Notes under the pieces: generated by a model | The model's input: only the letters and a program-made list of their open reading frames with translations | What the model was told of the DNA's origin: nothing | The model's database searches: none | Assembly (NCBI GenBank): GCA_016209635.1 | Contig: JACQWC010000130.1 | Span: forward strand, 1 to 60,030 | Direction of reading: 5' to 3' | DNA: 60,030 bases | Origin: Candidatus Rokuibacteriota bacterium | Lineage (GTDB): Bacteria; Methylomirabilota; Methylomirabilia; Rokubacteriales; CSP1-6 | Shown here: positions 1-2,714 of the stretch, piece by piece | Layout of the letters: every line of letters starts with the position of its first letter | Numbering within the stretch: position 1 is the stretch's first letter | Made by a program: the position numbers and the translations under genes

Positions 1-290
1 ACCAGGTAGCGGGCGGCCGCCTCCGGCCGGAGCGCCTCGCCGCAGGAGAAGATGTCGACGGCCGCGTACCGGTACTCCGGCCAGGTGTGGACCGAAAGGT
101 GGGATTCGGCGATCACCACCACTCCGCTGATGCCGAACGGGTTGAACTCATGGAAGACGACGTCGACGATCGTGGCCTGGGCCCGCTTCGCGGCTTCGAC
201 CAGGGCGCCCTTCACGGCTTCGAGGTTGTTGATGGCGTCGGGATCGCAATCGAACAACTCCAGAAGCAGATGTCGTCCCAGCGCGTTCAA
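1..290 (-). CDS. speD: S-adenosylmethionine decarboxylase proenzyme (3' end outside window)
   Basis: Not in the ORF track. Manual translation from TTG 290 gives MNALGRHLLLELFDCD...FHEFNPFGISGVVVIAESHLSVHTWPEYRYAAVDIFSCG, containing the ES pyruvoyl cleavage motif. SD AAAGGAGG lies upstream. Confidence 0.95.
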   Translation of the reverse strand, partial: MNALGRHLLLELFDCDPDAINNLEAVKGALVEAAKRAQATIVDVVFHEFNPFGISGVVVIAESHLSVHTWPEYRYAAVDIFSCGEALRPEAAARYL

Positions 291-322
291 TCCACTGGCC
301 CTCCTTTGTCCGTTCCGGCCAT
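287..322 (-). CDS. Putative leader peptide (uORF) MAGTDKGGPVD upstream of speD
   Basis: AGGAGAGGTG-6 nt-ATG GCC GGA ACG GAC AAA GGA GGG CCA GTG GAT TGA. Its TGA overlaps the speD TTG (TTGA). Confidence 0.5.
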   Translation of the reverse strand: MAGTDKGGPVD

Positions 323-404
323 CTACCGCACCTCTCCTGCGACGCGTGTGCTCTGACGTCGCCGTTAACGGAGCGAAAAACTTCTCCGGCACGAAACTTG
401 ATTC

Positions 405-433
405 ACTGTAGGGGCCGGTGTGGGCGATTGCAA
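405..433 (-). promoter_or_regulatory. sigma70-type promoter for speD
   Basis: TTGCAA-17 nt-TACAGT on the minus strand. Confidence 0.65.
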
Positions 434-487
434 GAAAAAAACGCGGTTTGCGGCGAACTTCCCGCCGCCGCCGAGGCAAATTTTCGC

Positions 488-515
488 TTGCATTCGCTCG
501 TCGGGCCGGTAGAGT
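488..515 (+). promoter_or_regulatory. sigma70-type promoter for pdaD operon
   Basis: TTGCAT-16 nt-TAGAGT. Confidence 0.5.
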
Positions 516-576
516 GGCGGAAGAATTCCCGCCGGCGCGCGCCGGCACCGCGATGGGAGGCGAGAAGGAGGCGCGA

Positions 577-1056
577 ATGACCAGGACGGTCACGATGGCG
601 GCGGCGACCGCCGGGCACGCCGAGGGCGGGACGCATCTCAACGCCTTCGACAACGCGCTGCTCGCGGCGGGCATCGGCAACGTCAACCTCATCAAGGTCT
701 CCAGCATCATCCCTCCCGAGGTGTCCGTGGTCGAGCTCCCCAAGATCAAGCCGGGCGCCCTCGTCCCCACGGCCTGGGCGGAGGCGACCAGCGACGTCCC
801 GGGCGAGACCATCGCCGCGGCGGTGGGCTATGCCCTGCCGGACGACCCCACGAAGCCCGGGGTCATCATGGAATTCCACGGCCGGTCGACGCGGGCGGAC
901 GCCGAGCGGGCGATCCGCGCCATGCTGGACGAGGCGTTCCGGGTGCGTGGTGAGGCGATCCGCGAGATGCGCGTCTTCGCCGCCGAGCACACCGTCGAGC
1001 GCATCGGGTGCGCCGTGGCGGCCGTCACCCTGCTCGCGGAAGAGGATCTGGTCTAG
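577..1056 (+). CDS. pdaD: Pyruvoyl-dependent arginine decarboxylase
   Basis: LNAFDNALLAAGIGNVNLIKVSSIIPP motif (SS cleavage site); SD AAGGAGG before ATG 577. Confidence 0.9.
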   Translation: MTRTVTMAAATAGHAEGGTHLNAFDNALLAAGIGNVNLIKVSSIIPPEVSVVELPKIKPGALVPTAWAEATSDVPGETIAAAVGYALPDDPTKPGVIMEFHGRSTRADAERAIRAMLDEAFRVRGEAIREMRVFAAEHTVERIGCAVAAVTLLAEEDLV

Positions 1057-1083
1057 CCCGGGCAGCGACTCCGGGGGTCGGGC

Positions 1084-1950
1084 ATGCGGGAGGTTTCGCC
1101 CCGGTTCATCGCCTGCCACCGGCCTCTCTCCGACGCCCGGATCGTCCTCTACGGCGTCCCGTTCGAGGGGCGCGTCAATCTCCGGAAGGGCGCCGACGGC
1201 GGCCCCCGAGAGCTCCGGATCGCCTCCGACTCCATCGAGACCTACTCGCCGGCCCTCCGCCGGGACCTCGAAGACCTTCCCCTGGCCGACATCGGCGATT
1301 GCGTCCTGCCGGACGGCGTCCCGCCCCGGGAGCAGCTCGACGCCGCCCGCGACGAGATCCTGGCCTGGTGGCGCCCCGGGCTCCGCCCGTTCATGCTCGG
1401 CGGGGACCACACGGCGACGGTGGCCGTGATCGAGGCCCTGGCGCCCGCCTTCCCCGATCTCCGCATCCTCCAGCTCGACGCCCATCCCGACACGCGAGAG
1501 GAGTTCCTCGGCGAGCGCTACAGCTACGCCTCTGCCATGGCGCGGGTGATGGAGGTCGTGCCCGCCGGGCGCGTTTACCAGGTGGGGATGCGGACCGGCT
1601 CGCGCGAGGAGTGGGAGCGGGCCCGGCCGCACTTCCACCCGGCGCTCGCCGGCCACCCGCTCGACGTGGTCCGCCGACTCGTGCCGGAGCTCGGAGGCCA
1701 CCCGCTCTACGTGACCATCGACGTCGACGTCCTCGACCCGTCCGAAGCCCCGGGCACGGGCTCGCCCGAGCCCGGCGGCCTCCGGGTGCCCGAGCTGGTC
1801 GAGATCGTCCGGGCGCTCGCCCCGTGCCGGGTGATCGGCGGGGACCTGGTGGAAGTCGCCCAGGCGTGGGATCCGACGGGACGGACGGGGATCGCGGCCT
1901 CCTGGGTGATCCGCGAGGCGCTCCTCGCCTGGTGGGGTGACCTCCGGTGA
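1084..1950 (+). CDS. speB: Agmatinase
   Basis: Ureohydrolase motifs GGDHT, DAHPD, TIDVDVLDPSEAPGTGSPEPGG; follows arginine decarboxylase. Confidence 0.9.
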   Translation: MREVSPRFIACHRPLSDARIVLYGVPFEGRVNLRKGADGGPRELRIASDSIETYSPALRRDLEDLPLADIGDCVLPDGVPPREQLDAARDEILAWWRPGLRPFMLGGDHTATVAVIEALAPAFPDLRILQLDAHPDTREEFLGERYSYASAMARVMEVVPAGRVYQVGMRTGSREEWERARPHFHPALAGHPLDVVRRLVPELGGHPLYVTIDVDVLDPSEAPGTGSPEPGGLRVPELVEIVRALAPCRVIGGDLVEVAQAWDPTGRTGIAASWVIREALLAWWGDLR

Positions 1951-2714
1951 CGGCGCAGTACGGGGCGCCGCGGTTTTACGAGATCGCCTTCGACATGAAC
2001 CGGAAGGGCGAGGTCGATTTTCTCGTCCACTGCTTCCGCCGGTACGCGCGGCGCCCGGTCCGGCGTGTCCTCGACCTCGCGTGCGGGACCGGGCCACACC
2101 TCTGCCGGCTGGCGGAGCGCGGGTACGCGGTGACGGGCCTCGACCTCTCGCCCCGGAACATCACATTCCTCCGCGAGCGGCTCGCGGCGAAGGGGTACCG
2201 GGGCCGCCTCCTGGTGGGCGACATGACGGACTTCCGTCTGGGACGGCCGGTCGACGCGGCGATCTGCATGCAGGACTCCCAGGGGCACCTCCTCACGAAC
2301 GAGCAGCTCCTCGCCCACCTCCGGTGCGTCGCCCGCGCGCTCAAGCGGGGCGGCCTCTACGTCTTCGACCGGTACATGGCCTCCTCCTGGACCAACCCCG
2401 CGCGGAGCTGGTCCTGGTCGCGACGACGCGGCCGGCTGATCGTCCGCGCCTCCTTCTCGGCGCTGAACGACGTCGACCCGGTCACCCAGATCTTCCGGGA
2501 GCGGTTGACGCTCGAGGGGGTCGAGAACGGCGGTCGCCGCGTCTACCGCCAGAGCCATCTCTCTCGGATGGTCTTCCCCCAGGAGCTCCGGGCGCTCGTC
2601 GCGCTCGCCGGCGGGTTCGAGTTCGTCCAGTGGTTCTTCGGGTTCAAGCCGCATCAGGTGCTCGAGCGCTCCAGGCACCCGCTCCTCATGGTCGTGGTCC
2701 TGCGCAAGCGCTGA
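1947..2714 (+). CDS. Class I SAM-dependent methyltransferase
   Basis: VLDLACGTG, GLDLS, GDM motifs; GTGA overlap with speB. Confidence 0.85.
   Translation: MTAQYGAPRFYEIAFDMNRKGEVDFLVHCFRRYARRPVRRVLDLACGTGPHLCRLAERGYAVTGLDLSPRNITFLRERLAAKGYRGRLLVGDMTDFRLGRPVDAAICMQDSQGHLLTNEQLLAHLRCVARALKRGGLYVFDRYMASSWTNPARSWSWSRRRGRLIVRASFSALNDVDPVTQIFRERLTLEGVENGGRRVYRQSHLSRMVFPQELRALVALAGGFEFVQWFFGFKPHQVLERSRHPLLMVVVLRKR

Follow-up and report, generated by a model that had tools for sequence, protein, structure and literature searches.

Does the short reading frame in front of the speD gene of a Candidatus Rokubacteria genome encode a regulatory peptide, or does it serve the expression of speD in some other way? 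The window analyzed here, the whole stretch of 60,030 nt, opens inside speD, the gene for AdoMetDC, and an upstream ORF (uORF) of 11 codons lies directly before it on the minus strand. In eukaryotes, AdoMetDC uORFs (mammalian MAGDIS, and the conserved-peptide uORFs of plant SAMDC) are conserved and sequence-specific, and repress via scanning ribosomes. Arrest peptides of the SpeFL, TnaC and MAGDIS kind depend on a particular sequence placed at a set distance from the site of stalling. The initial annotation of this locus proposed that the peptide senses polyamines and that the arrangement converges on the eukaryotic one, while allowing that the shared Met-Ala-Gly start could be accidental.

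The product of the speD frame matches Pfam PF02675 (E = 5.8e-36). Full-length SpeD was taken from contig C169, a second contig of the same MAG (loci L002 and L003) that is 90% identical to window positions 1-329 and carries speD followed by speE, spermidine synthase (PF01564). C169 is probably from a co-binned close strain (MAG contamination is estimated at 7.9%), and its uORF peptide is MTGRPKGGPVD. C169 SpeD matches the equivalog model TIGR03330 with 147 bits against a cut-off of 75.65, positions 2-112 of the model aligning to residues 3-113 of the protein. We read TTG 290-288 as the correct speD start because no ATG, GTG or TTG start was found in the speD frame 5′ of it near the domain, and because the alignment with TIGR03330 begins at residue 3. 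SpeD homologues may be neofunctionalised decarboxylases, according to the accessible part of one report (PMC10407285); the equivalog match and the adjacent speE argue for a true AdoMetDC. The divergent pdaD-speB operon encodes pyruvoyl arginine decarboxylase and agmatinase, and pdaD, speB, speD and speE together therefore encode a complete arginine-to-spermidine route. Among relatives, pdaD was located in 77 of 111 sequences and is divergent from speD in all 77. The coordinates of the features are collected in Table 1.

Table 1. Features of the speD leader and its surroundings (window coordinates, except for the speD-speE junction, which is given on locus L002)
Feature	Position	Strand	Remarks
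speD (AdoMetDC)	1..290	-	TTG start 290-288; window holds the first 96 codons, gene passes the window edge
uORF MAGTDKGGPVD	287..322	-	ATG 322-320 to TGA 289-287; 11 codons
SD2 AAAGGAGG	300..307	-	within uORF codons 6-8; 9 nt before TTG 290-288
SD1 GGAGAGGTG and spacer CGGTAG	323..337	-	SD1 at 337-329; 6 nt before ATG 322-320
Hairpin 2	339..362	-	GCGACG(T) 362-356 with (G)CGTCGC 345-339; RNAalifold consensus
Hairpin 1	369..399	-	CGGAG 388-384 with CTCCG 373-369; A/U-rich apex GAAGUUUUUCG
-10 element TACAGT	405..410	-	T, A and final T invariant in 57 relatives
-35 element TTGCAA	433-428	-	17-nt spacer to the -10 element
T-tract and -35 hexamer of the speD promoter (TTTTTTT C TTGCAA)	428..440	-	from sequence reading and conservation
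Twin promoter of the divergent pdaD-speB operon	487..521	+	CTTGCAT, 16-nt spacer, TAGAGT; conserved in relatives
pdaD, pyruvoyl arginine decarboxylase	577-1056	+	divergent from speD
speB, agmatinase	1084-1950	+	in pdaD-speB operon, divergent from speD
SAM-dependent methyltransferase-like ORF	1947-2714	+	follows agmatinase in the polyamine cluster
speD stop/speE start overlap on L002	1395-1398	-	TTGA/GTGA type

Two further features of the divergent strand may be recorded here. The agmatinase stop overlaps the GTG start of the methyltransferase-like ORF by 4 nt (1947-1950, plus strand). The ribosome-binding site of pdaD (553-576, plus strand) is a tandem purine-rich SD, GGGAGGCGAGAAGGAGG, much like that of the speD leaders without a uORF that are described below; an ATG at 553 is in frame with pdaD and has no SD of its own.

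The promoter, the two hairpins, SD1, the 11-codon ORF, SD2 and the TTGA overlap were all found in the sequence where the initial annotation had put them. The uORF TGA and the speD TTG overlap as TTGA, with three letters shared; the TGA is not an independent feature, because it is fixed by the second codon of speD (AAC). SD2 begins 16 nt downstream of the uORF AUG, and the two starts are 32 nt apart. Much of this arrangement is conserved: the GAGGTG core of SD1 is kept in 56 of 57 aligned relatives (the exception being locus L007), the block of SD1 and its spacer, GGTGCGGTAGATG, is near-invariant across the 57, as is GGTGCGGTAG between SD1 and the ATG, and the GG..GG of SD2 is invariant or at least 90% conserved. 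No exact or near-exact copy of the SD1-ATG block was found elsewhere in the genome, where only chance-level matches with two mismatches occur. Read in the frame of the uORF, the stretch GTGCGGTAG (323-331, minus strand) is GTG-CGG-TAG; it does not vary among 52-57 relatives, although a spacer can normally change without constraint. An RNA pairing partner was sought for it and none was found.

To see how far the uORF extends, we turned to relatives, among which speD was detected in 38 of 41 genomes. The 110 loci with a speD start in reach gave 95 distinct rows in a speD-speE DNA tree, built by a quick method, with the root unknown and from related genomes that are not independent; neither the window nor locus L003 entered the tree, as the available sequence of each is incomplete in the coding or the upstream region. 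A long leader with the SD1-ATG block is present in 58 of the 95 rows. The other 37 have no uORF and comprise one clade of 36 rows (99% support) and a long-branch outlier, L102. Their leaders are shorter: they keep the promoter and the 5′ hairpin, followed by a tandem purine-rich SD and a UUG or GUG start, and no conserved upstream frame was found in them under any start codon. Outside this clade the block GTAGATG is kept in 58 of 58 rows; it doubled as a sorting criterion, and still no row on the uORF side of the tree lacks it. The bacteria of the uORF clade are uncultured Candidatus Rokubacteria from soil and groundwater.

The distance from the ATG to the speD start falls into a few classes. 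It is 32 nt in 46 rows, 29 nt in six (two events) and 44 nt in one, the classes with a stop that overlaps the start, and 30 nt in three rows and 33 nt in two, where the ATG is in frame with speD. Across the 58 rows, the uORF stop overlaps the speD start as TTGA or GTGA in 50, comes early, 2-5 nt before the start, in three (the sisters L085 and L065, and L034), and is lost in five, in which the ATG is fused in frame to speD, giving an N-extended SpeD. The remaining frame, 1 mod 3, was found in 0 of 58 rows; in the window sequence it would take ribosomes about 50 codons out of frame across the speD start. Frame-keeping length changes are -3 (twice) and +12, and frame 0 was reached in three to five events; for the in-frame fusions the tree requires at least three separate events, probably four or five. 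The frame statistics behind a coupling of uORF and speD are thus some three frame-keeping and three to five frame-changing events among related genomes, and the pattern is suggestive of selection, not a statistical proof of it.

On these comparisons we conclude that the uORF is selected, because the block is present in all rows outside the no-uORF clade while the neighbouring sequence (the hairpin-2 loop, the hairpin-1 stems, and uORF codons 2, 4, 5, 9 and 10) varies freely. The proposal of a real element tied to speD holds. Of the features whose conservation the initial annotation had suggested comparing, the SD and the ATG are kept throughout the uORF clade and the overlap in 50 of 58 rows; length and C-terminal residues are not kept.

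The peptide itself behaves differently from the block that precedes it. Among 47 sequences of the 32-nt class, codon 2 occurs in 11 forms (for Ala, Asn, Asp, Thr, Ile, Val, Gly and Pro), and codons 4, 5 and 10 in at least 12 each. Entropies at positions 1, 2 and 3 are 1.08, 1.62 and 0.40 for codon 2 and 1.80, 1.56 and 0.61 for codon 10; in the free codons of the uORF, third positions are better conserved than first and second, which is the opposite of purifying selection at the amino-acid level. What is conserved in the uORF are nucleotide blocks, namely CGGA, TCG, SD2 (Lys-Gly-Gly) and GGATTGA. CGGATCG is near-invariant, the conserved K-G-G is SD2 in translation, and the final Asp corresponds to the GA before the start codon, which is kept in no-uORF leaders as well. 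The length of the uORF is 8, 9, 10, 11 or 15 codons. The C-termini in L074 (MSALSAIDEKEGERN) and L084 (MVEGERRPLD) are unrelated to that of the window peptide, and L085, L065 and L034 also have variant C-termini. Every stop is UGA, and 45 of the 47 sequences end in Asp or Glu. The hallmarks of an arrest peptide, a conserved C-terminal peptide and a fixed length or spacing to the stall site, were not found among the relatives. With at least eight different amino acids at codon 2, the MAG start shared with the mammalian peptide is a coincidence, a possibility that the initial annotation had allowed for.

The rest of the leader is structured. Both predicted stems are present, those of hairpin 1 covarying and hairpin 2 showing compensatory changes. 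In relatives, hairpin 1 consists of covarying GC stems around a conserved GAAAUUUUUUC apex, and an unbroken stem of at least 7 bp lies within the first 42 nt in 44 of 58 uORF-class leaders and in 13 of 35 no-uORF leaders. An alternative pairing in the window joins the 5′ end AAGUUUC (399-393) to GAAGUUU (384-378); in some genomes (leaders L035, L037, L043, L044, L047, L054 and L069) the conserved 5′ end AAGUUUYG pairs with CGAAAUUU, which is otherwise the top of hairpin 1. At the extreme 5′ end of the leader (378-399, minus strand), either of two A/U-rich helices can thereby form, but not both at once. Hairpin 2 has a GC-rich stem of seven pairs and a loop variable in length and sequence, and it ends 1 nt before SD1. 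In the alignment, 95% of its cells are paired, and compensatory cells number 14 compared with 3.1 in shuffles, a value reached in 0 of 500 shuffles; in controls slid along the alignment, pairing drops to 7-54%.

Single-sequence folding of the whole leader gave an unremarkable stability (z = -1.49), and RNAalifold on 52 leaders returned only hairpin 2 and three invariant pairs, with pairing of the uORF to SD1 or to the start region unsupported. Three pairings checked by hand (GGCC/GGCC, GAUG/CAUC and CCAG/CUGG) did not covary consistently. A search of window positions 1-1200 on both strands against Rfam 15, with E up to 10, gave four chance-level matches, none of them within 287-400. Binding of CsrA to the five GGA motifs was dropped as an idea because no CsrA (PF02599) was found in the genome, which is 92.6% complete.

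Upstream of the leader, the promoter TTGCAA-17-TACAGT is borne out by the relatives: across 57 aligned sequences its hexamers and the T-tract vary little or not at all, and the T-tract/-35 stretch TTTTTCTTGCA is invariant or at least 90% conserved. It fits the consensus at only 8 of 12 positions, and a scan for consensus promoters and terminators returned 0 sites. The speD and pdaD promoters have one plan, a T-rich tract, CTTGCA, 16-17 nt, TA(C/G)AGTGA and then a palindrome of GAA..TTC type (GGCGGAAGAATTCCCGCC after the pdaD-speB promoter); an element of the type GAAA-N-TTTC just after the -10 is common to both leaders. The pattern [CT]TTGCA[ATC]-N16-18-TA[CGT]A[GTA]T has three matches in the 4.16-Mb genome, two of which are these back-to-back promoters; the third, on contig C257, was set aside, as there is no evident polyamine gene downstream of it. 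One regulator or sigma factor common to the polyamine genes may explain the near-twin promoters. No further occurrence of the T-tract/-35 motif or of the hairpin-1 apex was found in the genome. A GC-rich palindrome with a GGAAGTTC apex (441-470, minus strand) separates the two -35 boxes, upstream of each promoter; relatives have a GC-rich, partly palindromic sequence at the equivalent place, followed by the conserved T-tract.

Start codons along the operon form a chain. In all loci with a start in reach, except the outlier L102, speD begins with TTG or GTG, and in the uORF clade the TTG or GTG of speE overlaps the speD stop in 55 of 57 rows (TTGA in 46, GTGA in 9). On the no-uORF side the same junction is ATGA in 16, TTGA in 8 and of another kind in 13 of 37 rows. 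No SD is visible before the speE TTG on C169. As both speD and speE begin at UUG or GUG in the uORF clade, the chain has a single AUG, that of the uORF, and runs from this AUG with its strong SD1 through UUGA into speD, with its strong SD2, and through UUGA or GUGA into speE.

From what was observed (the anatomy and how it is conserved, the pattern of reading frames and the chained overlaps), we favor, with confidence a little above even, a reading in which the uORF is a translated leader ORF that acts, in one Candidatus Rokubacteria clade, as the ribosome entry site of a translationally coupled operon of speD and speE. Ribosomes would load at the strong SD1 and AUG, translate about 11 codons and terminate at the UGA overlapping the speD UUG, where SD2, 9 nt upstream, has the ideal spacing; they would restart on speD by termination-reinitiation, and the NUGA overlap would hand them on to speE likewise. 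The peptide as such would carry no information, and control by a metabolite or a protein would more probably act via the promoter and the 5′ hairpin region, which are common to speD and pdaD-speB. If the operon senses anything, these shared elements are better sensor candidates than the peptide. We infer the translation of the uORF, the positive sign of the coupling and the site of regulation from this arrangement. The early-stop variants are in favor of coupling, as they still terminate 2-5 nt before the UUG. The in-frame fusions fit as well, because the loading site simply becomes the SpeD start, and they are harmless if the ATG serves to drive speD translation. On the other side, the no-uORF clade starts speD from a tandem SD and UUG or GUG without any uORF, so coupling is not obligatory, and SD2 is strong by itself. 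Nor does coupling explain the near-invariance of GGTGCGGTAG and of CGGATCG in the uORF.

Contigs from four soil RNA libraries of four studies span window position 1 to about 349 and cover speD, the uORF and SD1; pdaD is covered as well. Being 85-99% alike, they are taken to come from relatives. No contig fell on window positions 371-555, a gap from which we draw no conclusion. One of them has insertions of +1 and +2 within the uORF, a net change of +3. That the leader is part of the speD message is no more than hinted at by these contigs, because RNA libraries can hold DNA and the contigs show no transcript ends.

How do other readings fare against the same evidence? Since a ribosome on the AUG would cover SD2, the net effect of the uORF could be negative or buffering: ribosomes at SD1/AUG would compete, constitutively or conditionally, with those at SD2/UUG and lower or buffer the output of speD. 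The short distances between the sites fit this, and closely spaced pairs of upstream and main ribosome-binding sites have been proposed, in the accessible part of the source, to occlude each other and down-regulate the main ORF (PMC13285730). We nevertheless regard occlusion as unlikely, given that overlapping stop and start codons with a well-spaced SD2 are the classical layout for reinitiation, that recurrent in-frame fusions would turn the brake into a strong start and yet persist, and that weak UUG/GUG starts throughout the operon fit delivery of ribosomes better than competition. Slightly more doubtful is a reading of the conserved block as an RNA or DNA element, for instance one bound by a protein or ligand, with the ATG as part of the motif and translation of the short frame incidental. 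Such an element would account for GGTGCGGTAGATG and CGGATCG being conserved as nucleotides, for third codon positions exceeding first and second, for the covariation of hairpins 1 and 2, and for the promoter type and the GAAA-N-TTTC common to speD and pdaD. Yet no Rfam family was matched even with E up to 10, the structure found by RNAalifold at the ATG block is limited to the three invariant pairs, it is difficult to see, unless the frame is translated, why 1 mod 3 is missing and 3n length changes are in excess, and ribosomes will use an SD placed 6 nt ahead of an ATG.

The proposed sensor peptide, a convergent analogue of the AMD1 uORF, would with polyamines stall the ribosome at the UGA, cover SD2 and the UUG, and repress AdoMetDC synthesis. 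We consider this very unlikely. A ribosome paused at the UGA would indeed sit on the UUG and SD2; the gene appears to be a true AdoMetDC within a complete arginine-to-spermidine cluster; stop and last codon are nearly constant; and bacterial ribosomes can sense a polyamine precursor, as SpeFL senses ornithine, by the accessible part of that study (10.1101/604074). But no amino-acid conservation goes beyond the nucleotide-constrained positions, the constant UGA is a by-product of speD codon 2, and the GA behind the last Asp is retained in leaders without a uORF. Lengths of 8-15 codons, the differing C-termini of L074, L084 and the early-stop forms, and the 5 of 58 in-frame fusions, in which termination is abolished, tell against an arrest peptide equally. 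Present evidence does not establish convergence with the eukaryotic polyamine-sensing uORFs. The in-frame rows could also mean that the ATG is the true SpeD start and that the 32-nt form requires a programmed -1 frameshift, loosely like antizyme recoding; ATG and speD share a frame in five relatives, and in the window the speD frame is open between ATG and TTG. This is extremely improbable: no slippery heptamer (X XXY YYZ) precedes the UGA, a P-site GAU cannot re-pair at -1, the well-spaced SD2 and UUG/GUG are conserved also in clades without an upstream ATG, and the family model begins at the UUG-encoded N-terminus.

Beyond translational coupling of the uORF to speD, the whole leader (the alternative 5′ pairings, hairpin 2, the SD1-AUG block and the uORF) could conceivably be a new cis-regulatory switch of polyamine homeostasis in Rokubacteria, a proposal we hold to be unlikely. 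If it were true, a metabolite (polyamine, SAM or dcSAM) or a protein would set entry into the uORF or the restart at the UUG, and a related element on the divergent pdaD-speB promoter would make a small regulon. The locus marks a conserved leader, together with a twin promoter, at the genes that lead from arginine to spermidine in an uncultured phylum. It also offers a clean, clade-wide case in which the only AUG of an operon is on a leader ORF and both enzymes are made from UUG or GUG via stop-start overlaps, and termination-reinitiation from weak start codons could be studied on this natural example.

The uORF most likely belongs to a known class, that of translationally coupled leader ORFs overlapping the start of the main gene. 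In the literature searched, as far as it was accessible, we found no description of a uORF, a leader or translational control of bacterial speD or AdoMetDC. The eukaryotic AdoMetDC uORFs are alike in the enzyme and in having a short uORF just upstream; here, by contrast, relatives do not keep the MAG start, and the uORF ends within the main start. The gammaproteobacterial SpeFL, as far as the accessible text of that study goes, is likewise a leader ORF before a polyamine-pathway gene, speF, at whose stop a ribosome could exert control, and its ornithine sensing rests on the peptide sequence and acts by transcription antitermination (10.1101/604074); the Rokubacteria peptide is unconserved and variable in length, and its output would be translational. 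Site occlusion as set out in the accessible part of PMC13285730 likewise involves an upstream ribosome-binding site within one ribosome footprint of the main one, but the occluding sites there are almost silent for translation and have no stop-start overlap. The closest likeness is to the ATGA-overlap uORFs of Sinorhizobium meliloti, for which, in the sections available, start-to-stop mutations showed positive coupling to the main ORF (Dietz et al. 2026, PMC13285730). There too, a short leader ORF has an SD and a start codon to itself, a 4-nt overlap of its stop with the main start, and the main-ORF SD inside it, and the set listed in Table S7 of that work may include comparable cases. In the Rokubacteria, the main starts are UUG or GUG and the only AUG is on the uORF, to which coupling would tie them; the NUGA overlap is used again at the speD-speE junction; and a structured leader, conserved throughout the clade, precedes the uORF. 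Two traits are unusual for the coupled-uORF class, this chain of weak starts and the structured, clade-specific leader.
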